Both the position numbers and the translations under genes were made by a program. The notes beneath the pieces were generated by a model, which saw only the letters and a program-made list of their open reading frames with translations, was not told where the DNA came from and searched no databases. Below, piece by piece: positions 3,239-19,620 of a DNA stretch of 20,000 nt (position 1 is the stretch's first letter; each line of letters opens with the position of its first letter). Source of the stretch: Asterionella formosa (lineage: Eukaryota); NCBI GenBank assembly GCA_002256025.1, contig NKIB01005148.1, positions 117,233 to 137,232 on the forward strand, written 5' to 3'.

Positions 3239-3524
3239 GTTCCGCTGTTCGGGGATGTATGACGGTACATTGGAGTCTAATAAAAGGCAATATTAGTAGA
3301 AATGCATGATAGCCTGCCACACTTTTATGTTTATGGATTCAGATGGTTCCACAAGAAGCGTGAATTCGGTCACAGATGGCAAAACGGGAAAACGATGAAA
3401 TCTGTGACGCGACAAGAAAACTCCATTCGCAGTGTGAATCAAAATCAGATCACCTTCTCGATCGATGATTGCCTCGCCCGACGCTCTGCTTACCTGAATA
3501 TAAACACTAGTAACAAGCAAACCC

Positions 3525-4322
3525 ATGAATCGAACAGCTATTGCTATCGTCTTTATCCTAGTGGCTGTAGTAGTGGGTTTCAACAGTCATCAGGAACAGG
3601 TCCCATCGTGCCATTCTCCATTTCGACAATTGACTTGTCTCAACGCAGCTCATTTGGGGGAGCGTGAAGGAAAGATATCATGCAGCTGGATCCGAGCTTT
3701 GGCAACTGATGAAAATGTAATGAACCTTGTTCAGACTAAAAAAAACTCGAGGGTGCCAGCAATTAAAAAAAAATCCGGTATCGTCATGAGAACGGCAGCT
3801 AGCAAATACAACGAGGAGGCATCGAAACCATCATCGCCGCAGTATACGACAAGAAAGAATTCCCAGCCAAGTGTCTCGATATCGTTTGAAGGAATTGCTG
3901 GAGACTACAATTGCTATCGAACCCTATCATTAAGCTCTACTCCTGCTCGTGCTATTTCTCTTCTGACTGTGGATGCTATAAATCTTCTTAAGACGCTTTA
4001 TCCTACTTTCAGGGATGGGGATTTGGGAGAAAATATTCTCATCGATGGCATTTTTTATCGGGACATGGAAGTGGGAGGAAGGTTTTATTTAGGAAATGAA
4101 GTGCTGTTGGAGGTAACAGAACCGATTGAACCATGTGCGAATCTGTGTAAGCTCCCTTACATTAACAATGTCACCCTGACACCAAGGGATCGAATCCAAC
4201 GATGCAAGGATTTCATTGAATGGCTTAATACCCAGGATGGACTCCGTGGCTGGTACGCAAAAGTTGTCAATACCGGAGTCGTAAAAGTTGGTGATACAGT
4301 ACAAGACGCAAAATTATTGTAA
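3525..4322 (+). CDS. MOSC-domain protein (YiiM-like) with N-terminal signal peptide, possibly plastid-targeted
   Basis: The motifs GIAGD, RAISLL, GDLGENILIDG, LLEVTEPIEPCANL (conserved MOSC Cys) and RGWYAKVVNTGVVKVGD are present. The hydrophobic N-terminus MNRTAIAIVFILVAVVVG is followed by F. Confidence 0.85.
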   Translation: MNRTAIAIVFILVAVVVGFNSHQEQVPSCHSPFRQLTCLNAAHLGEREGKISCSWIRALATDENVMNLVQTKKNSRVPAIKKKSGIVMRTAASKYNEEASKPSSPQYTTRKNSQPSVSISFEGIAGDYNCYRTLSLSSTPARAISLLTVDAINLLKTLYPTFRDGDLGENILIDGIFYRDMEVGGRFYLGNEVLLEVTEPIEPCANLCKLPYINNVTLTPRDRIQRCKDFIEWLNTQDGLRGWYAKVVNTGVVKVGDTVQDAKLL

Positions 4323-5057: not shown

Positions 5058-5774
5058 TTACCTCTCATCGAAATTTAAACTGGCAAGTGTTGCCTCATTG
5101 TACTCATCGATAGCGCTGTCTGAGACTATTGATTCGCCACTTGAGCTGTTGTTTACAAGCGAAGCTGATTGCTTCGACAGGCCTGCAGCAGGTCGCAGCC
5201 GTATTTCAGGTAGAATTCCGTTGGAGAGCTGTGTGTGTCCCTCACAGCGTGCACTACTCTTTCCATTCCGTTTCGGTCGATGTTGTGCTTTCGACTGTTG
5301 TGCCATAACATCTCGTAGCGCGTGACTTGTTTTGCTTCGAGTTTTATTACTTGAAACGACGTACCACTTCTTGCTCCTCGACTCTTGTTTCAGAAAGCGG
5401 CCTCCTTTGCTATGGATAGCTTCAATTATTGAAGAAACTACATTTGCTTTGTCGGTCCTCAACGTCGCTGCAGCAAATCGCTCGACGTTCTGGTTTGTCA
5501 GAAAGCGAAAGTTCTTATTGCCTCTATGATTATAACAATTACTGTCTCGACCCAGAAGGACGTCATGGTCGTTGATGTGCTGAGAATCTATCAGGGGCAA
5601 ACTTTCGTCGTATGTATCATTATATTTGCTTTCTTCCTTTTTAATACTTCCTTTCGTTTTCCTCGTTGAAACCTTGCTGGAAATGTTGTCATGGACGCCT
5701 TGTGTCGGTGCTGGTATCGGTCGAGAATTCACATGCTTGCATTGAGAGGTCGAACCGTTTTGAGAGGACGACAT
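5058..5774 (-). CDS. DUF6824-domain protein (238 aa)
   Basis: The sequence DHDVLLGR...HRGNKNFR.L...KANVVSSIIEAIHSKGGRFLK......W..V.....RSKTSHALRD places it in the same family as 2126-2812. The exact 3' end could be altered by splicing. Confidence 0.85.
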   Translation of the reverse strand: MSSSQNGSTSQCKHVNSRPIPAPTQGVHDNISSKVSTRKTKGSIKKEESKYNDTYDESLPLIDSQHINDHDVLLGRDSNCYNHRGNKNFRFLTNQNVERFAAATLRTDKANVVSSIIEAIHSKGGRFLKQESRSKKWYVVSSNKTRSKTSHALRDVMAQQSKAQHRPKRNGKSSARCEGHTQLSNGILPEIRLRPAAGLSKQSASLVNNSSSGESIVSDSAIDEYNEATLASLNFDER

Positions 5775-7076: not shown

Positions 7077-7283
7077 TGTTAGAAAATGCGGAAACAGACT
7101 AATCAGACTATAATGAAGGTACTGGATGGATTCACGTGACTAAAAAGAAACAGAACAAGGCCACGTTGTTGTCCAAGAAAGCGTCACCAAGACCAAGGGT
7201 ACCAGGTACCAAAATAGGTACCAGGTGCACTATATAGCTAATATATGGGCTATGCTCATTTTTTTATAGTTATCTGGTTTACA
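7077..7283 (+). repeat. 5' LTR (207 bp)
   Basis: It starts TGTTAGAAAATGCGGAAACAGAC and ends ...GGTTTACA (TG...CA). It is a direct repeat of 10911 onward and contains GGTACC repeats and a TATATA. Confidence 0.9.
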
Positions 7284-7536
7284 TCGATAAAGCCTCCCCT
7301 GTATGTTTTTATTCTGGACGTTGTTGTCTTATTGACACAACCGAACTCAAGTCAAACTTGTGGATTCAACATAACTATAAAAGAAAAAGAACGGGGTCCA
7401 GTGACACAGCTGCCAATGATGGCGGTGGGAGCGGAACTCCAACTCAAAAGGAAAAGAAGGAGACACAAGGCAGTGGGAAAAGCCACCCTTCCGGTCTGCA
7501 AATCCAAACCAAAGAAACACGGTGCCAAGACACACA

Positions 7537-8529
7537 AAGTTTGAAGGGATATGTGATGACATAAAGGGCTACATTTTCGACTGCTCAGACAGTCAGATAT
7601 GTTTGTGAAGACCACAAAGGCTGAATATGTCGGAAGGACATACAAATATGGTGGAGACATCAGGCTTGCTGTGGAGAATCTCGAGCTACCCATCATCAAT
7701 GAGCCATCAGACCCACCAGCCGGAGCAACCAGGACCAAGGAGTGTATCTGGGAGAAGCAAGTAGATGAATATGTCAAGCGGAGCACTTATCTTACTAATG
7801 AAAACATCAAGACCCTCTATTCATTGGTATGCCCATGTCATGCGGCAAAAAGTTGAGGCATTACCCAACTTCTTCAATGGAATGTCAAGTGAGGGTGATG
7901 GTTTGTCTCTTCTCAAGGCAATAAAGAATATGGCTTTTATTTATCAAAGCCAGAAATACTTGCCACATTCAATGTATGAATCAATGAAAAGGTTCTACTC
8001 CATGACACAGGGCAAATATATGACCACTCAGGTCTATTTGGAACAATTTCAGAACATGGTAGATGTGATTGAGCACACGGGTGGAACTATTGGACATCAA
8101 CCTGGACTAGAACAACTAATCATGACTGAGCTCAACATCATCCATGAAATGGCCACCCAACTTGACAAGCTGACAGTAAAGAAAGAGGCACAAGGAAGGT
8201 TCTTGGCGCTGACACAAGACGAGCGATTTGGTCGACTAATTGAGAATCTAGAGAATGACTACTTACAAGGACAGAACAACCACCCAACCACACTGACCGG
8301 AGCCTACAATCTCTTGACAAACTGGAAGCAGGACCCACGAAATTTGATGAGAACAATTGGCCCTGTGAATGATGGAGTGTCTTTTACTAATGTTGAGGGT
8401 GCCGATGCAGAATAAGAAGTTACCCTTGCCAACCACAGCCAAAACAAATCGAGTAGTGGCAACAACAAGGACAAACCACATGTCACATGCCGCAAGTGCG
8501 GAAAACAAGGGCATTATGCAGACAAATGT
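7537..8529 (+). pseudogene. gag: Copia gag remnant with zinc knuckle
   Basis: Fragments KFEGICDDIKGYIFD, YVGRTYKYGGDI, DGLSLLKAIK and YLEQFQNMVDV lie across several frames. A CX2CX4HX4C knuckle CRKCGKQGHYADKC is at 8488-8529. The true start is upstream and unresolved. Confidence 0.85.
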
Positions 8530-8643
8530 GAAGAAGAGAGACAGAGTGGTGCCACAATGCTCACATCGTCATCAGGTGTAACAAATGGCGAATTTGACAA
8601 TCAAGAGCACTTTCAATTCTTGCAACACACCTCTGGGGTATAA

Positions 8644-9000
8644 TTGAAACTTGGAGAGAATGGCAAAATCCCAAGAACTTGGATGCTATTGGATAATCAA
8701 TCCACAGTCGACTTGTTTTATAATTCTGCCCTCCTAAAGAACATTAGACAGGTGGATGCATACATGGACATCCACTGCAATGCTGGAATCACTAGCACAA
8801 ATATGGTTGGAGACCTCCCAGGTTATGGGAAAGTGTGGTTTCACCCCAACGGTATTGCAAACATTCTCTCCCTTGCACGTGTCAAAGAGCAAGGGTACCA
8901 TGTCACATACAATAGCAACAACGGGAACAAATTCCTGATTCACAAGCCAGACAAGACCAGTTGAGTGTTCAAACAATCAGAACGAGGGCTATATTTCTTA
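8644..9000 (+). pseudogene. pol: Copia aspartic protease remnant plus pre-integrase GLY motif
   Basis: WMLLDNQSTVDLF (CoDi-type active site) and ANILSLARV are present. Reading through the TGA at 8962-8964 gives VFKQSERGLYF. Confidence 0.85.
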
Positions 9001-9070
9001 GATACTGCTGATAGCGCAAAGAATATCACATTGGTCAATATAGTAGACAATAACAAGTCTACTAGCTAGT

Positions 9071-9560
9071 CTCAACATTACATTGAACACCGTAGCCAAC
9101 AATGAGCATGTGCCAGAGGTTGAACGATATATCTACACAGTAAAGGAATGAGCATGCTGTGTATACAACATGCTGCCATTTAAACAAATCCCTGCAAGAA
9201 TGACCATTGAAATGATCTACTACAATGTTTTCTGGCTAAACAGCTTCCCTCCCGCCGATGGAATTTCCGACATGCTCAGCCCCTGTGCACTTGTGATAGG
9301 CTCTAAACTGCACTACACAAAACACTGTCGACTTGAGTTTGGCACATACGCTCAGGTGCATGAAGAACATGATAATTCCATGGCTACTCGCACCACAGGC
9401 GCCATTGCTCTACAACCCACTGGTAGCACTCAAGGTGCATACTATTTTTATAGCTTAACTACTGGGCGAGTCCTCAACCGCAATCACTGGACAGCGCTAC
9501 CAATGCCTGCAGAGGTTATTGACCGGGTTCATGTGCTTGCCAGTCGCACCGTTGGAGCGG
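9071..9560 (+). pseudogene. pol: Copia integrase C-terminal half and SH3-like region
   Basis: NEHVPEVERYIYTVKE*A (last catalytic E region, TGA at 9149-9151), FWLNSFP, FGTYAQVHE and GAIALQPTGSTQGAYYFYSLTTGR are present. The zinc-binding domain and first catalytic Asp residues are absent. Confidence 0.85.
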
Positions 9561-10051
9561 GAGCTGCTGGACTAGCATTTACAGACCAAATTGGAAATCC
9601 TTTCATCAACCCAGCCGATGACGACAGCTCCAATGATGAGACATATAACCCAGCCTGACACCTCTGACATGGATGACAACTATGATTCTGAAGATGATGA
9701 CACTGATAATGAACATGACAATCAGGAAATGGATGATCATGCAGACATCCCCATTCTTCCTACAGACATCCCCATTGCAGGAGTGCACAGTGCAGATGAA
9801 AACAATGACCAACATGACCAACACGAAAATTTGCAAAATTCTGAAATGCTCCATGAACATCACGACAACAATGAAATTGAAAATGAACATGACAATCAGG
9901 AAATGGATGATCATGAAAATTTGCAAGAATTACCTATGACAGTGGAAGAGGAAATGGATGCAAAATACGGGACCCATACAAACGCATACCAGCTAAGGCC
10001 CAGAAAGCCCCGGGACTATGGCCACCTCCATGCGACTCTTGAACATACTGC

Positions 10052-10870
10052 CATGACGCAATATAACATGAAAAAGGCATAAAGATGTTTGGTGATGCAC
10101 GCGTTGAGGCTGTTCAAACAGAATTACAGCAATTACACGACAGGAAAGTCCTAGAACCAAAAATCCAAAAGCTTGACTCTATTAAGCTAAACGCTGAAGA
10201 GGCGGCGGTGCTGTTCCATCATAATGTGGCCAAACTACTATTTTTATGCAAACGGCCTTGGCCTGACATTCAAACTGCCATTGCATTCCTATGCACAAGA
10301 GTGAAATGTCCAGATGAGGATGACTACAAAAAACTGTGTAGTGTTATGAAATGCTTACAAGGAACAATCAATATGCAGCTGAAATTAGAAACAGACGACG
10401 TCAAGATCGAAAAATGGTGGGTTGACGCCTCCTTTGCAGTGCACCCAGAAATGAAGAGTCACACTGGAGGAACAATGACACTAGGCAAGGGCATCATGTA
10501 TGGCACATCAACCCAACAGAAAATTAATACAAAAAGTTCAACCGAGGGTGAGCTTGTGGGGGTGAATGATGTAATGCCTCAAGTTCTCTGGTCTAGGTAC
10601 TTTTTGGAAGCTCAGGGATATGCAGTCTCTGACTCAGTGATATACCAGGATAACTAGAGTGCAATCCTATTAGAGAAGAATAGAAAAGCATCCAGCAGCA
10701 AGCGTACTTGACATATCAATATTCGATATTTTTTTGTGACAGATAGTAGGATTGCCTCTCGTGAGGTCTCTGTGCAATACTACCCTACTGAAAACATGAG
10801 TGCAGATTTTTTTACCAAGCCCTTTCAGGGTGCAGTTTTCAAGAAATTTAGGGACCAGATTATGAACGTT
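10052..10870 (+). pseudogene. pol: Copia RT flanks (core deleted) and RNase H remnant
   Basis: MTQYNMKKA...ELQQLHDRKVLEP is joined directly to FHHNVAKLLFLCKR.WPDIQTAIAFLCTRV, with no YVDD. RNase H motifs WWVDASFAVHPEMKSHTG, KSSTEGELV, YQDN*SAI, RT*HINIRYFF and ADFFTKP follow. Confidence 0.88.
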
Positions 10871-10900
10871 GATCCTACAACAACCTCAAGCTTGCAGGAT

Positions 10901-10910
10901 CACAGGAGTG
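10901..10910 (+). other. Polypurine-tract-like element before the 3' LTR
   Basis: CACAGGAGTG immediately precedes the TGTAA start of the 3' LTR. It is short and only partly purine-rich. Confidence 0.5.
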
Positions 10911-11085
10911 TGTAAGAAAATGCGGAAACAGACTTGTCAGACTATTATGAAGGTACTGAATGGATTCACGTGACTAACAAGAAAGAGAACAAGGCCACTT
11001 GTCAGCCAAGAAAGCGTCACCAACAAGGGTACCAAAATAGGTACCAGGTGCACTATATAATATATGGGCCATGCTCATTCTTTTA
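10911..11085 (+). repeat. 3' LTR (probably truncated at its 3' end)
   Basis: It starts TGTAAGAAAATGCGGAAACAGAC and aligns to 7077-7266 with about 12 substitutions and 4 indels by manual count. Similarity stops after ATGCTCATTCTTTTA. An alternative end is CTAACA at 11101. Confidence 0.85.
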
Positions 11086-11870
11086 AAATTGCAAACTAAC
11101 AGCCATGTGGTGCAGTCTCGAATATTGTTGCATCTAAAGTGGCTACACTGCTGGCTTGGCTAAAAAACCCAACCAGTACCATTTGCAGAAGCTAAATCAG
11201 GCGGGAAAGGCAACTCATTCGCTACTAGTACAATTACCTGTAACTACGACACCAAATTATTCACTGTCATTTTTAGGACATACCTCATCAATTTTTACCC
11301 TGACAACAAATCCAAGTTTAAACATCCAACTCACGAAATGCAAGAGAGACTTACTCACCCCAAGGAAAGGCGCCGTGCTGAACTTGCTGTTGGAAAGGAT
11401 GACATTGTTGATCTGGTGTCGAAAGCTTGGGATGAATCCTTTTCCCATATCGCTATAAACCAAAAAGCTGTTGCTGAATGAGGTTGGGGTTCATTGAACT
11501 ACAACTTCTTCTTCCATCCAGAAATTCAACTGAAAAGTCCCTCAAATCTGCAAACAGAAGCAAGCAATAATCAACCAGTCTCTTCCATTCCCCCATCCGG
11601 ACTTAACTTGAGCCAAGGCATCTCTGGAACCCTTGTTGATCAGGTCGTACAGTATCGCAATCATGAGTACCAATGAAAAGGAACAGCACTAAGGGCGATT
11701 GCAAGCAATAAACAATACACAGCCGGTCTTCATGTTGCTGGAGGCAGGTACTTCAACTTTTAAAGTGGTCAAGCAATGAAGAGCTGAAAAGGAAGAGGCG
11801 TGCGGAAGAAGTGCAGAGTGAGCGATAGTATAAGAATATAAATACACACACGGCGCTTGCAAACAAGGTT
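11086..11870 (+). mobile_element. Decayed pogo/Tc1-mariner-like (DDE_1) transposase fragment
   Basis: Across a frameshift it reads IQLTKCKRDLLT / KERRRAELAVGKDDIVDLVSKAWDESFSHIAINQKAVAE*GWGSLNYNFFFHPEI (11398-11526, TGA at 11479-11481). This resembles the AW...I...G helix region after the DDE_1 catalytic core. The catalytic residues themselves were not seen. Confidence 0.6.
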
Positions 11871-12522: not shown

Positions 12523-12836
12523 TATAACTGGTACACTGACGGCGCTGATCGCGTTAAATTTGACTGAAAAGACCCTGCTTATTCATAGGAGGTGGCTAGA
12601 CCAGCCTCCATGTAAAACTGCATGTACTGTAGCTGCAAAATTTATGACGATCATCGACATTATCCATTCATCACGAAAAGCACATGTTGGCTTCTCCTCA
12701 TTTAACTTTTATCTAAAGAAAATTGTTTCTAACTTCGCTCCCGTGTTGTGTGACATTGATATAAGGGTTCATTCACTCCATATTTCGCTTCCACACACAC
12801 AATACAGACCACTTCCTTCACTAACTAATTCACACG

Positions 12837-14770
12837 ATGAAGTTGTACGCAGAAGCAGCGAGGGCAGCCCTTGCTGTGGTTCTCTTCTCCACTTCAATCG
12901 TGATTTCAGAGAGTTTCGCCCTTGTTCGATCGAACTCACGATTGATGGAACCAATGAACCCGTCCGTATCGACCCGATTACATATGGTGGCGACAGAAAT
13001 AAATCCGTCGAATGACTTGAAAGAGTTGGGAAGCGATGGCATCTATCATATTCGCAACCAGGAGCAATACCAGTGAGTTCTGGACAATGGAACTTCTCGT
13101 TGTGGTGACGATGCGAAAACTCAGCAGCGCTTCGACTCTAACACATTCTTGCGCCCCCTCTCCCTCCTTTCAGTGAATTCTTAGCCTCAAACTCGGACAA
13201 AATAATTGTACTCAAATTCTTTGCTCCTTGGTGTAAGGCATGTCAAAGTTTGGATCCTCGCTTTCAACGGATTGTAGATGATCCCAAATACGCCAACCTA
13301 CCCTTGGTATTTGCTGATTTATCGGTCAGTGAGAATAAAGAATTGGCCAAACGAATTGGAGTTCTGGCACTGCCTTCTGTTCGGATGTACGCTGGCGGAG
13401 GATTGGTGGAAAACTTTCCTTGTGGACCTTCTAAGGTTCCCATTTTGAAAGCAAAACTAGACCAACTAGTGCATGACAGAATCGATCCAGAGACCAATAT
13501 ATTACGAGATCTTGTCGTTGACATTGAAAATACCACAAGTACAGACTGGACTTTGAGGGAACTTGATGGCAGAGGAATCAGAACAACCGTGGATGGTGTG
13601 GAGGTTTCGAACGAGACTATTCAACGAATGCAGACGACGATTCCCTACTTGAATGAATTGACCAACGATCAATTTAACGGCCTAATGGCAAAGGCCAAAC
13701 TAGTTTCCTTCAATAAAAACTCAATTATTGCCAGAGAAGGAACGCCAGGGCGAACATTTTATGTTATCTTATCGGGTGAAGTAGAGGTCGCATGCAGGAC
13801 TGCATTTGAGGATCCCCTTACAACACCGTCGTTTTATCTTGGAACTGTAATTAATCGACTCAAAGCATATGATTACTTTGGTGAACGGGCATTGATCACG
13901 GGCGAACCCATGTCAGCTTCTCTTGTCACAACAGAAAATACCAAAATTGTGGCTTTTGATGTTGACGATATTCCGTCCTCCTCCATTTTGTCAGGGAAAG
14001 GACTAGCAAGTGCTGATCGCATGCAACAAGTTGACAGTAAGTACGGTGTTGACGTTGGCAGTCTGGATATGCTCCAAGTGAATGCGCAGCTGGAAGCTTC
14101 AAAGTTGAATAGTCAAGTACGAGGATCCATCAATTCACCAAACATTATTCGAGGTGTCGATACAGATGAAGACTTTATAGAGATCCCAACTGCGAAGAAG
14201 GATAACGATTTAATTATTTCCCTTTTGGTAAAGTTCCGCATGATTCGGCATGCGGCCCGTTGCTTTGATTACATCATGACAACTGCACCAAAATGGGGCG
14301 ACGATGGTTCCCAACGACGACGTAGCATGCTGGTTAGTCGACTCACTGCTGCTCAAAAGGAAGAGTTTCAAGATGTCTTTGCGATAATCGATAAATCACG
14401 AGATGGTGAAATCAGCTTATTGGAATTAGAACGTTTTATGAGCTCTGTGGGCGAAGTAAAATCGGATGCGGAACTTCAAGCGGTGATTGCCAATTCTCTG
14501 CAAAATTTGGACGGAAAGAAAGTTATAACGAAACAAGATTTTATGGGAATCATGGCAGAAGCAGACTTTTATCATTTATTCAAGGACACGTTTGCCAGTT
14601 TGGATAAGTACAACTCTGGTTTTGTGAAGGCGTCAGAGTTAGATCGTGTCCTCTGTGGAATGCGTGATTTGATAAGTGATGATCGCAAGTCAATTATTGA
14701 TGTCGACGACAAGGACATGATGATTGATTATGAACAATTCAGCAAGATGCTATTGGGAACAACGTTATGA
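12837..14770 (+). CDS. Thioredoxin (WCKAC) + cyclic-nucleotide-binding domain + EF-hand protein, predicted plastid-targeted; exons 12837-13072 and 13174-14770, 610 aa
   Basis: Splicing joins ORF 12837 to ORF 13250 in frame. The presequence is MKLYAEAARAALAVVLFSTSIVISES-FAL. The Trx domain reads KIIVLKFFAPWCKACQSL (WCKAC at 13229-13243)...GVLALPSV. The cNMP domain reads IIAREGTPGRTFYVILSGEVEV...DYFGERALITGEPMSAS. EF loops are DKSRDGEISLLE (14390-14425) and DKYNSGFVKASE (14603-14638). Confidence 0.9.
13073..13173 (+). other. Spliceosomal intron (101 nt, phase 2)
   Basis: Donor GTGAGT, branch-site CTAAC at 13138-13142, a pyrimidine tract and acceptor TTTCAG are present. Removal restores a continuous frame through WCKAC. 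Confidence 0.9.
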
Positions 14771-15737
14771 AGCGACCAGCAGGTGAGGCTACACATGCAA
14801 ATTTGAGCACAAGACTTTTTGGTCAATGTCGGATAGAAAGCATTCTAAGCACACCAGTTTGGCTTGCACGCCTTCAATAAGCAGAATGCATAATGCAAAA
14901 GAATAGATAAATAAAGAAAGCAAATCGCACAACATAGCTTATTTTTGAAAGTATCACTGTAGTAGCGAAGCAAGTGCTTAACTATCGCAGTGCATTCTGA
15001 CCTTTTCCTACCAGGCAGCTTGTGCCACCTTCCTAAGCAGTTTCCCCTAATGCTGCAGCTAAGATGACCAAATTTGCAAAACGTGGTTGAGGACTTGCCT
15101 ACACTAACTAAACTAAGGAAGAGAAGGTTTTGATAGCACAATCAATACTTGCCTAGTCACATATATCCTATTCGATTGTCAGCCACCCGAGAGTGTGCTG
15201 GAGGCGTGCCTTGCATGTATCTTCTGTAACCCGGTGTTATTATACATGGCATATTGCTTGACAACATTGATGATTCTCATGCTGGCATATGGTCATACGA
15301 CTTACGTTTTCGTCAGCTGTGGCAATCTCGTCGGATGAAGCAGTCTCTGACTTACATCACATCGGCCAGACTCGCACATATGATGTTGGGAACAGACTAT
15401 AGACATATGTATTATTGATTTAATGAGTAAAATATCATCTTCACACATTTGGTGCATTACACTAAATTAATTGGTAGAGGATTAGGGTGATGAGGTTTAG
15501 GACTCTGCAACCTCCGCCTCGGATGGCTTTTTTGATCTCAAAAAATTAGCCATAATTTCACATCTATCGCAAAACATCCTTGACCTTTGGTCGGCGGACT
15601 TTTGTCGCATGACGAGACTTAAATTGTAATCCTGCACCGATAGCTGCAAGTTGCGGTCATTTTGCTTAAACAAACAATTTAATAAAGAAAGCTAAATTCT
15701 TAGTTTCAGAACAATTGCCGCAACTTGCTGGTATTAC

Positions 15738-15820: not shown

Positions 15821-16210
15821 TTGATTCGTAGACTGAGTAATTCACACACTGGTGTATGTTTATATAGAATCCGTGGTACACAAATTTATTATGCCATTAA
15901 TATCTCGTTTCAGGACGTCCGACCTACCGAAAGTCAGCATAAATTGATTCTTGCTTGCAATTCGACCACGAATCATCGACTAATCGATCCAAATATCTGA
16001 CGCGAAACCCAGTTACCGGCAACGAAAAACCACTTGTTGTGAGTCAGTTGACAATGTTCGATTGTAGTCGGAGTCTCCAACTTCCATTAAGTACCCTGGA
16101 AGTTTGCTCCGTCGAATATAGTGAGTACTGTTTTCCTCACAATTAGGCATCTTCGCCATAAAACTGACCAAAAGTTCTTCTTGTCAGCATTGATTTTACC
16201 CTACTCAACA

Positions 16211-17224
16211 ATGAATCTCCTTGTCAACAACTCTGTCCTCGCTCTACTTCTTGTACTCGCCAGCACTACCTACGCCCAACAATGCTCCGGAAAACCAAGC
16301 ACCTTGACATGCTTACCAGCATCAATTTCACCAACTCTAGATGCGGAGCTCAGCGAATGGGCCAGCGTGGAAGGCATTGATACAAGTATTTATCAGATTG
16401 GCGGGACGGAATACCATCACAACGTCTCCTACAAATGCTTGTACGATGAAACGAACATATACTTTGCCCTCGTCATCCCTGGAGACTACCGCTTCAACGC
16501 TTCGGTTAGCGAGCTTTGCGCATCAATTGCTACCATGTTCAAGATTGGCTCTAATGCATCCTACATCAACATGGGAGGCTGTCCCGACGCTGCCTTTTCA
16601 TGCTTGAGTAATGGCACAGTACCAGCTTCCTGTGACGACTATCGTGTTGATATTGGTTCTCATTGGGAGCTGCCCACCACGCAACAAAATGTGGCATACC
16701 AAATAGCCGTGCAAGACGGCAGTGGTGAGGACCCAGTGGCAGGAAACAACGATGAATACGCAGTGAGTCCCTATTGCCGCGCCTTTGACGATGGTGCCGG
16801 TGCAGGCAATGAATGGGTGGGAGCATGGGCTCATTCCAACCCAACAGATGGAGCAGCGGGTAGTTACACCTTTGAATTGTCCCGCTTGCTGTCGACCAAG
16901 TCGTCATCGACGGATTTACAACTTGTGGCAGGTAAAACGTACAGTTTTGGTATCGCGTTCTGGGATCCTTGGCAGACAGAAGCAGGATGGCTAGATCCCG
17001 GTCACTACATAACTGGGTGTGCCTCCGAGTGGATCGATCTCGTCCTTCAGAAAAGCTCCCCTGGTAACTCTACCCCTGCAGCTGCTCCATCTCAAAGTGG
17101 TGGTTCAACTGCCACACCTGCCCCCACAAAAGGTGCTAGTACTGGAAGCAGCACACGAGGCGTTCACCTTGGAATCATGTTGACCTCCCTTGTTGCTACA
17201 ATGATGCTTCTTTTGCTGCACTAA
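16211..17224 (+). CDS. Secreted, probably GPI-anchored DOMON-like/EB_dh-type heme-binding protein (337 aa)
   Basis: The ATG at 16211 gives the signal peptide MNLLVNNSVLALLLVLASTTYA. Motifs TLDAELSEW, KCLYDETNIYFAL, NMGGC, WVGAWAHS, YTFELSRLL, FGIAFWDP and GHY are present. An S/T/P/A-rich linker is followed by a terminal hydrophobic tail with no cytosolic segment. Confidence 0.8.
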   Translation: MNLLVNNSVLALLLVLASTTYAQQCSGKPSTLTCLPASISPTLDAELSEWASVEGIDTSIYQIGGTEYHHNVSYKCLYDETNIYFALVIPGDYRFNASVSELCASIATMFKIGSNASYINMGGCPDAAFSCLSNGTVPASCDDYRVDIGSHWELPTTQQNVAYQIAVQDGSGEDPVAGNNDEYAVSPYCRAFDDGAGAGNEWVGAWAHSNPTDGAAGSYTFELSRLLSTKSSSTDLQLVAGKTYSFGIAFWDPWQTEAGWLDPGHYITGCASEWIDLVLQKSSPGNSTPAAAPSQSGGSTATPAPTKGASTGSSTRGVHLGIMLTSLVATMMLLLLH

Positions 17225-18148: not shown

Positions 18149-19303
18149 CTATGTGGACTCAAGCAAAGTTGTTGCAACTCCTTGGCGAACATTCGAAATA
18201 TGCGTCCAATGTTCTAAATCATCCAAAAGGCCTGTTCCACAAATATCTACATCGTGCAAGGCTGGGGCGTCCACGGTGGCATGAGCCAGTTTTGTGCACC
18301 CACATACATTCAATTGTAACAAAGCAGGAGCATAAAGGTCCAACACTTCCAAAAGCGGCAACATGGAAAGGTTCAATTCTTTTATTGAGGAGGAGGCCAC
18401 TATGACAGTGTGCAAGCGAAGACATACAGCCGTGACCAAATGACTCAACGACGGGCAATCCAAACTAAGTTTTGAAAGGTTTGAAGAAAGGGTAACATCG
18501 AGAGACGCGAGCGTTGACGAGCAAATGTCGAGGGTCATCAATAAGGGGCACTTGGATATTTTCAATAATGCTAAGTGGTTCAATGACTGTACCGCATTCT
18601 GGATGGATTCTCCTCCTAGTCGTCTACAGTCGGAGAGTTGCAATGATACTAGCTGTGGACAATGAAAGGCCGGCAAATCACGCAAGTCAAAACAGCCCAT
18701 CAAACGTAGGTGCCGCAAGGAATGGCTCTGAATCTTGGGCGAAAAAATTCTTGAGCACATTGCCAAGGACAGAGTTTCAAGAAGTCGACGGCCCAGGATA
18801 GTGTCAATGTGTTCATCTTGTATCGAATAGCAATATTGTATCGAGAGAGTCTCCAAATCACTGGAGAGGAGGACGCTTCCAAAGTCCACTGTAAATTTGC
18901 CATGAAGAGTCACGTGTTTTGCCTGTTCGAGATGCAACATGGCGGGACAGGGACCACTCCGAGAGAACGCAAAGGTATAGCCATGGAGGTGAATTTCTTG
19001 AAGAGTCGACAGTGCTACCGTGGCGTTGCTAAGGATGGAGAACAACGCGTTGCCAACCAATTCCAGGCCAGCGAGGTACAACACACGAATCCGTTTGAAT
19101 TTATTGATCAGTGATCGCAATTGACGTTCATTCAGGAGTGGCCCATCGTTGTAGATGTGAGTCGCATCGGCCGACGCTTGGTTCAAGAGGGCCGACGACC
19201 ACGACAGCGATTGGAGCTCGTGGAGGCGCAGAAAGCTCAGGACGCTGCGAATGCAATCCGGAGGCAGCAATTCAAGCAACGAGAGGACTGCGCCGTCACT
19301 CAT
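18149..19303 (-). CDS. F-box/leucine-rich-repeat (FBXL-type) protein (384 aa)
   Basis: The N-terminal F-box reads LLELLPPDCIRSVLSFLRLHELQSLSWSS. Cys-containing LRRs follow (LETLSLAMCSRI, LRHLRLMGCFDL, LVSLQLSDCRRL, LLQLNVCGCTKL). Confidence 0.88.
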   Translation of the reverse strand: MSDGAVLSLLELLPPDCIRSVLSFLRLHELQSLSWSSALLNQASADATHIYNDGPLLNERQLRSLINKFKRIRVLYLAGLELVGNALFSILSNATVALSTLQEIHLHGYTFAFSRSGPCPAMLHLEQAKHVTLHGKFTVDFGSVLLSSDLETLSIQYCYSIQDEHIDTILGRRLLETLSLAMCSRIFSPKIQSHSLRHLRLMGCFDLRDLPAFHCPQLVSLQLSDCRRLGGESIQNAVQSLNHLALLKISKCPLLMTLDICSSTLASLDVTLSSNLSKLSLDCPSLSHLVTAVCLRLHTVIVASSSIKELNLSMLPLLEVLDLYAPALLQLNVCGCTKLAHATVDAPALHDVDICGTGLLDDLEHWTHISNVRQGVATTLLEST

Positions 19304-19314
19304 GGAAAGGGAAT

Positions 19315-19620
19315 GGTACCGGTAACTCTACTTGGTAACAGATACCAGGTACTGATCTAATATAATACCGGTACACACTTTCAATGAATCGAGAATGGCA
19401 TTATAGTATACCGGGTACAGCTGTCGTACTAGAAACCTTCGGCGCGAAACTGCGCGGAAAAGAGCAAGAAGTGCAACTGCCTGCTTGTTGTTTAATCATC
19501 CTCAACTCAAAGACCGGTACAAGGTACCGGAGTAAGCCAACTTTATGATTTTTTTGTTATATATAATATCACGGTATGATACAGATACACTACGGATACC
19601 ACTACACCGGTACACCGGTA
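19315..19620. promoter_or_regulatory. TACCGGTA/ACCGGTA motif cluster in a divergent intergenic region
   Basis: TACCGGTA is at 19317 and 19366, TACCAGGTA at 19343, TACCGGGTA at 19409, ACCGGTA at 19513, 19606 and 19614, and GGTACC at 19315 and 19523. The cluster lies between starts at 19303(-) and 19721(+). Confidence 0.45.

Follow-up and report, generated by a model that had tools for sequence, protein, structure and literature searches.

At one locus of the window, which is the whole 20,000-nt stretch of Asterionella formosa DNA that was analysed, a single gene joins a thioredoxin (Trx) domain, a cyclic-nucleotide-binding (CNB) domain and a calmodulin-like domain. A first-pass annotation had proposed that this one polypeptide could couple redox, cyclic nucleotide (cNMP) and Ca2+ signals in the plastid. 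The question raised by the locus is which of these signals can be expected to reach the Trx domain of this particular protein. The coordinates of all features are collected in Table 1.

Table 1. Features of the Trx-CNB-EF gene in the window.
Feature	Position	Strand	Basis
Transcribed span, longest RNA contig, poly-A end	12672..14934	+	contig X4
Coding exon 1 (presequence and start of Trx domain)	12837..13072	+	translation, RNA contigs
Predicted signal peptide, aa 1-26, cleavage SES↓F	12837..12914	+	sequence, crude hydropathy test
Predicted transit peptide from Phe27, Ser/Arg-rich, end approximate	12915..12986	+	crude presequence test
ACHT/Lilium-like thioredoxin domain, aa ~68-181, spans the intron	13038..13480	+	Pfam, profile match, alignment
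Intron, 101 nt, GT-AG, phase 2	13073..13173	+	splice signals, RNA joint
Coding exon 2	13174..14770	+	translation, RNA contigs
Active site WCKAC, C99 and C102	13229..13243	+	family alignment
Third conserved Cys, C162 (FPCGP)	13421..13423	+	family alignment
CNB fold, aa ~236-352, PKG/PKA-like	13643..13993	+	Pfam, sequence and fold matches
Phosphate-binding cassette, Arg to Met325 (13910-13912), Ala to Ser326	13874..13930	+	family alignment
Conserved junction helices, aa ~420-468, preceding the calmodulin-like lobe (accompanying it in the model)	14195..14341	+	alignment, model
Calmodulin-like domain, aa ~469-608	14342..14761	+	calmodulin matches
EF1, sole canonical Ca2+ loop (DKSRDGEISLLE)	14390..14425	+	EF-hand pattern
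EF3, degenerate, Tyr at 3, Lys at 9 (DKYNSGFVKASE)	14603..14638	+	EF-hand pattern
EF4 region, degenerate Ca2+ loop, highly conserved, acidic	14699..14737	+	alignment, EF-hand pattern

Joining of the two coding exons results in a frame of 610 aa that has one stop, at its end. The intron carries a GTGAGT donor and a CAG acceptor, with a CTCTAAC branch-like site and a pyrimidine tract in between. Since six other donor/acceptor pairs keep the frame open as well, the intron had to be decided by RNA, and the RNA contained only the predicted joint 13072/13174, which was present in all four runs examined (of 22 listed; four studies). The runs, in which the gene was carried by lake or freshwater metatranscriptomes and an algal poly-A library, were available as contigs that give no expression level, and the RNA label of one of them is a guess. 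The whole coding region was bridged by one contig in three of the four runs. Contig X4 consists of 12672-13072 joined to 13174-14934 with a loose end of 24 A at 14934, and the contigs X3 and X6 extend from 12697 to 14930 and from 12722 to 14956, respectively. The earlier statement that the open reading frame track hides the active site was not confirmed, as WCKAC lies inside the stop-to-stop frame 13142-14770; the part that the intron sets apart comprises the presequence and the first strand of the Trx domain. The domain order Trx, cNMP-binding, calmodulin-like was confirmed with the Pfam families Thioredoxin (E-value 5.8e-13), cNMP_binding (8e-14) and EF-hand, all of which pass the curated cut-offs. 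In the AlphaFold model the individual domains are confident (mean pLDDT 84.4) and their mutual arrangement is left unfixed (pTM 0.47); a complex prediction of the Trx domain with the remaining protein and Ca2+, performed without alignment, scored 0.15 (mark 0.34) and counts neither for nor against such a contact.

In the surroundings of the gene, a decayed LTR retroelement (7077-11100, plus strand) is located about 1.7 kb upstream. Its direct repeats (7077-7271 and 10911-11090) are 92% identical over 88 nt and it holds broken gag-, protease-, integrase- and RT-like frames; four pieces of the element gave no Pfam match, and by its motifs we take it to be of the Ty1/copia type. Two DUF6824 genes (2126-2821 and 5058-5774, both minus strand) lie around a MOSC-domain gene (3504-4322, plus strand). 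A secreted-looking and possibly GPI-anchored protein with an EB_dh (PF09459) domain, a Ser/Pro/Thr-rich tail and a hydrophobic C-terminus is encoded at 16091-17224 (plus strand), and a leucine-rich-repeat protein with an N-terminus that appears F-box-like by eye, its Pfam LRR matches being below the cut-off, at 18149-19327 (minus strand).

The N-terminus of the 610-aa protein consists of a hydrophobic stretch (mean hydropathy of 1.86 over aa 8-22) followed by SES↓FAL. A crude, purpose-made presequence test, comprising a hydrophobic stretch, a SES↓F-type site and a Ser/Arg-rich peptide, was passed by 57 of the 73 distinct full-length N-termini of the family, compared to a mean of 6.5 and a maximum of 15 in 200 shuffles under the same test. 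Plastid import is deduced from the ASAFAP rule, which is mentioned in the accessible text of PMC5462543, and the probable plastid targeting proposed earlier is upheld: judged from its presequence, the protein is highly likely to reside in the plastid.

The Trx domain's active site is conserved as WC[RK][AS]C in 117 of 120 homologues, the region being absent from the other three, and C162 is kept in all 120. Among single-domain PDB entries, the best match of a profile of 26 family Trx regions was the chloroplastic Thioredoxin-like 2-1 with 69.7 bits (6LYW/6LYX, presumably ACHT1), whereas the next single-domain thioredoxin reached only 56.4 bits; multi-domain PDIs ranked above by summed domains only, with each domain at 47 bits or less in the four alignments shown. 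When the family member P0261 was aligned to 6lyw, the WCGSC site was aligned and the Cys of ESF-S-C stood opposite that of the family's ESF-P-C, so that the third Cys of 6lyw falls in the same column as C162. The use of this third Cys (ESF-x-C) as a mark of the ACHT/Trx-lilium type is a reading of the alignment. The family and 6LYW/6LYX thus share a non-canonical CxxC, the third Cys in ESF-x-C and an EN(K/R)-x-L-x-K-x-L-x-V-x-x-LP stretch. They differ in the active site, which is WCGSC in the plant entries, WC[RK]AC in the family and WCKAC in the 610-aa protein, although active sites differ among the ACHT isoforms themselves; moreover, ACHT/Trx-lilium proteins carry no such fusion, whereas the family adds the CNB and calmodulin-like domains.

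According to the accessible parts of PMC12596114 and PMC10351500, ACHT/Trx-lilium proteins are oxidation factors of plant chloroplasts, their redox potentials are high and they act on chloroplast enzymes by oxidising them via 2-Cys peroxiredoxin. Because the Trx domain is ACHT-like, switching targets off would be its likelier output, and on this analogy the chance that it works in the oxidative direction is put at about even. A typical 2-Cys peroxiredoxin, the partner of both plant ACHTs and calredoxin, was not among the best six of 9 AhpC-TSA matches in the nuclear assembly of A. formosa (15 candidates scored), which makes it harder to carry the plant pathway over unchanged, although such a protein may be plastid-encoded or have been missed. 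By motif, the best six matches are taken to be PrxQ-like, 1-Cys and type II peroxiredoxins. Two PrxQ-like peroxiredoxins (L020 and L021; G000 contigs C805 and C8423), of which L021 has a VSA↓FAP presequence, are candidate electron sinks for the Trx domain. The genome also contains an apparently stand-alone Trx of the same subtype with the motifs WCKSC and FPCGPNK (L011, 1342-1836, minus strand; C13850).

The CNB domain has PKG and PKA-R as top sequence and fold matches. It shares with PKG/PKA regulatory CNBs the fold and the type of cassette (family consensus FGERALITGEPRAAS), and differs in that a single CNB, no kinase and a plastid presequence are present. The canonical cassette, FGE-x-AL-x-x-x-x-P-R with a phosphate-binding Arg, was taken from the accessible text of PMC2246266. 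While the cNMP-binding domain of the first-pass annotation is present as a fold, its pocket is altered in the 610-aa protein: FGE is intact, but the cassette reads PMSAS and the Arg of PKG/PKA is missing, being replaced by Met325 and followed by Ser326. At this position Arg was found in 116 of 120 homologues, Leu in 3 and Met in 1, the last being the cluster of the 610-aa protein. A sequencing error was ruled out, since the RNA contigs X4, X6 and X7 match the codon without differences and two relatives also show Leu-Ser there. The available sections of PMC2246266 describe that the pocket Arg coordinates the cyclic phosphate, that its exchange for Lys in PKA lowers the cAMP affinity nearly ten-fold, and that a Met-bearing CNB was crystallised without ligand; in trypanosome PKA, replacement of the Arg accompanies loss of the cAMP response (PMC10959531, accessible part). 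With Arg exchanged for Met325 in the pocket, the 610-aa protein is therefore probably blind to cNMP or binds it weakly, and we regard this with good confidence. The genome further encodes a protein with three CNB domains and a kinase in a PKG-like layout (L004, 55-2376, minus strand; C5861). Its second cassette is nearly the family consensus at an overall identity of only 32-37%, and a CNB of this kind is possibly the source type of the fused domain.

The calmodulin-like domain is covered over its whole length by calmodulin alignments (E about 6e-15). In 120 homologues, the EF-hand pattern used for scoring is passed by EF1 in 108, EF2 in 3, EF3 in 24 and EF4 in 0 cases, and in the 610-aa protein by EF1 alone. 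Thus, the earlier description of one canonical loop was accurate, but the loop called near-canonical, EF3, fails the pattern, its ligand positions 3 and 9 being occupied by Tyr and Lys, respectively. From its ligands, EF1 is likely to bind Ca2+, and as a lone canonical loop it may do so weakly. The junction helices in front of this domain were also found in pelagophyte and dictyochophyte members and in the CNB-less protein P0201. A model of aa 360-610 reached a pTM of 0.67, and the best fold matches covering the junction helix were calmodulin-peptide fusions and the CDPK activation domain, in which a long conserved helix likewise directly precedes a calmodulin-like domain. The match of 3khe_B to model residues 76-249 had a Z of 7.7 and an rmsd of 3.4 over 106 residues, which is within the range of common helical arrangements, and the family is without a kinase. 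Since no match reached Z 8, a junction acting as an internal calmodulin-target helix is treated as a lead from the model and not as a result.

The Trx-CNB-EF architecture is conserved across diatoms and is present in pelagophytes and a dictyochophyte. A search with the exon-2 product gave 520 matches among 8000 scored candidates, and the best 120 homologues were 48-73% identical, own cluster aside. The nearest named homologues are diatom proteins, the named ones including Thalassiosira, Cyclotella, Skeletonema and Cylindrotheca, and distant three-domain members were found in Aureococcus anophagefferens, Pelagophyceae sp. CCMP2097 and Octactis speculum; two diatom cNMP+EF clusters in the ESM Atlas at 0.76 are a further lead. 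In 153 scorable rows, in which the 610-aa protein and its paralogue (see below) each enter twice via cluster representatives, pocket Arg and EF1 are both kept in 131, only the Arg is missing in 11, only EF1 fails in 10, and neither is kept in 1. Loss of the Arg recurs in several unrelated branches, which fits repeated specialisation and tolerated loss alike. P0201, a protein of 445 aa, consists of Trx (WCRSC, FGCGP), junction and calmodulin-like domain; only P0201 itself was found at E<=1e-20 among 8000 candidates. It is possibly a two-domain form of the family, and its lack of a CNB hints at the CNB as a separable module. In a quick 75-row tree, P0129, P0132, P0141, P0142, P0152 and P0153, one of them from Extubocellulus spinifer, form a separate subfamily (support 99). 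Its active sites, in members that have the region, read [YF]C-x-AC, and the pocket Arg is replaced by an aromatic or aliphatic residue.

A second copy of the gene is present in the same genome, and it shows the mirrored pattern: the pocket Arg is kept and EF1 is degenerate. The paralogue (G000 C6681/C12368) encodes a protein of 62% identity with a plastid-type presequence, and its intron has the same position and phase at a length of 85 nt. C6681 and C12368 do not differ over 5382 nt (100% identity), which may be due to assembly redundancy or a very recent duplication, and they were counted as one gene. Near-identical spliced paralogue products of 631 aa were found on contigs of about 2 kb. 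That the 610-aa protein and the paralogue are alleles was ruled out by the 62% identity and by the grouping of each with other sequences. The paralogue retains a PRAAS cassette, whereas its EF1 is DQSKKDEISLLD, where ligand position 5 is Lys and position 12 is Asp, and the EF1 pattern fails across its clade. An exchange of Glu for Asp at EF position 12 can shift metal binding instead of abolishing it. The paralogue had been missed in the first-pass annotation, as had the ACHT-like type of the Trx, the third Cys C162 and the parallel with calredoxin.

For a careful tree, 29 of 160 aligned rows were used and the cassette, EF1 and Cys204 columns were removed. The Arg-less clade (610-aa protein, P0002, P0003) was supported with 100/99 and the EF1-degenerate clade (paralogue, P0004, P0005, P0007) with 100/100; both are sisters (100/99), in agreement with the quick 75-row tree. 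Since the sequences are 73-78% identical within the Arg-less and 83-94% within the EF1-degenerate clade, the duplication probably predates several species splits. The 610-aa protein departs from 26 of 192 conserved columns overall. Where a column is conserved to 85% or more in 113 other homologues, it differs in the CNB domain at 15 of 56 columns vs 4 of 56 in the paralogue, and in the calmodulin-like domain at 1 of 52 vs 5 of 52 (Fisher test, p=0.012, post hoc). Because two of the positions counted, 257 and 543, are not specific to a clade, stricter counts were made: strictly clade-wide changes in CNB/calmodulin-like domain amount to 4/0 vs 1/4 (p=0.048), numbers that are small and were chosen after seeing the data. 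Judged from these sequences, the pair may have divided the Ca2+ and cNMP signals.

The preferred reading, to which slightly less than an even chance is given as a whole chain, is that of a plastid thiol switch that responds to Ca2+, its cNMP input having been taken over by the sister. The 610-aa protein would be a nucleus-encoded, plastid-imported sensor-responder. In diatoms exposed to high light and H2O2, stromal Ca2+ increases (PMC11663583, accessible part). This Ca2+ would bind to EF1, the calmodulin-like lobe would alter its grip on the conserved junction helices, and the shift of the junction would gate the ACHT-type thioredoxin, which most likely would oxidise, i.e. switch off, target thiols and hand electrons to peroxiredoxin. 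In the ancestral family, the cyclic-nucleotide input would be supplied by the CNB domain; after a lineage-specific duplication, the 610-aa protein would have lost the pocket Arg and kept EF1 as the Ca2+ copy, and the sister would have retained the Arg and lost the EF1 ligands as the cNMP copy. The allosteric coupling of the Ca2+ domain to the Trx, as suggested by analogy, could equally well be real or not. The wider claim that the family is a cNMP and Ca2+ receptor of the secondary plastid in diatoms and allied algae, with direct control over the thiol oxidation of photosynthetic enzymes, here split into a Ca2+-only and a cNMP-only copy, is rather unlikely.

Redox could instead be the input: the protein would be an adaptor that acts by binding a partner via the junction helices and the acidic C-lobe, with its conformation governed by the Trx cysteines, C162, C442 and C573 together with Ca2+. 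The conservation of C442 in 116 and of C573 in 114 of 120 homologues is in line with this, as is the finding that conservation is among the highest in the junction and in the degenerate EF4 region, though EF4 never passes the pattern. However, the invariant CxxC and the complete Trx fold are as expected of an active oxidoreductase and no partner is known, and the adaptor is considered improbable. Still less probable is the absence of any division of labour, i.e. relaxed drift of independent modules after duplication with the mirrored pattern arising by chance. The number of changed conserved columns and the lower identity within the Arg-less clade than in its sister would suit drift, and the recurrent loss of the Arg elsewhere in the family means that the loss may simply be tolerated, which also speaks against split inputs; against drift, the same hydrophobic-plus-Ser replacement is common to three sequences that share only 73-78% identity, each copy's losses fall in a particular domain and mirror those of the other, and the gene is expressed with an intact frame.

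The role proposed at first, integration of redox, cyclic nucleotide and Ca2+ by the single 610-aa polypeptide, is plausible for the family, most members of which keep both sensors, and is consistent with three Pfam domains above the cut-offs and the intact FGE. For the 610-aa protein itself, it is distinctly improbable because the pocket Arg is lost and more than a quarter of the conserved CNB columns (15 of 56) are altered, and even the Lys exchange in PKA and the ligand-free Met-bearing CNB cited above (PMC2246266, accessible part) speak against it. Least probable of all is a pocket retuned to a nucleoside, AMP or a metabolite, giving a Ca2+ plus metabolite sensor, for although fold and FGE are retained and a trypanosome PKA-R with the same Arg replaced binds purine nucleosides (PMC10959531, accessible part), a further exchange that is needed in trypanosomes, Ala to Glu at the second residue behind the cassette Glu, is missing (Ala318 here) and the replacing residue varies between Met and Leu.

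No Trx-CNB-EF protein was found in the titles and abstract openings searched, most subscription papers being outside the search, and the architecture is not described in the accessible parts of PMC5462543, PMC5139114, PMC13351737 and PMC11663583; the supplements of PMC5462543 (770 ochrophyte plastid proteins) may list it. In agreement with the first-pass annotation, this architecture, common in diatoms, is therefore uncharacterised within the literature searched. A family that reaches from diatoms to pelagophytes and dictyochophytes and combines an oxidation-type Trx with both sensors is a direct candidate for plastid Ca2+ decoding, enzyme re-oxidation and plastid cNMP action. The mirrored paralogues make the Ca2+ and cNMP inputs testable singly with natural proteins and, if the preferred reading is true, the pair is a natural means of separating them.

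Few Ca2+ decoders of the diatom plastid are named in the accessible text of PMC11663583, namely KEA3 and DSP1. Both are likewise diatom plastid proteins with gained C-terminal EF-hands, but have unrelated effector domains and, as described there, neither Trx nor CNB. The closer parallel is calredoxin (CRX), a Ca2+-dependent chloroplast thioredoxin of Chlamydomonas reinhardtii (PMC4911631; PMC13351737, accessible parts), in which a calmodulin-like domain and a Trx are joined in one polypeptide with a proposed Ca2+-to-thiol coupling (PMC4911631). CRX was absent among the best 50-60 PDB matches listed for the 610-aa protein and its family. According to the same partial source, CRX has the EF domain first, a C-terminal Trx, no CNB and four Ca2+-filled loops, its midpoint is -288 mV and its target is 2-Cys PRX1, whereas the order here is Trx, CNB, junction, EF with one canonical loop, and the Trx is ACHT-like, unlike that of CRX. 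With neither four filled EF-hands nor the calredoxin domain order, the 610-aa protein lies outside that family and its fusion is probably independent, yet its sequence suggests that it would work like calredoxin.
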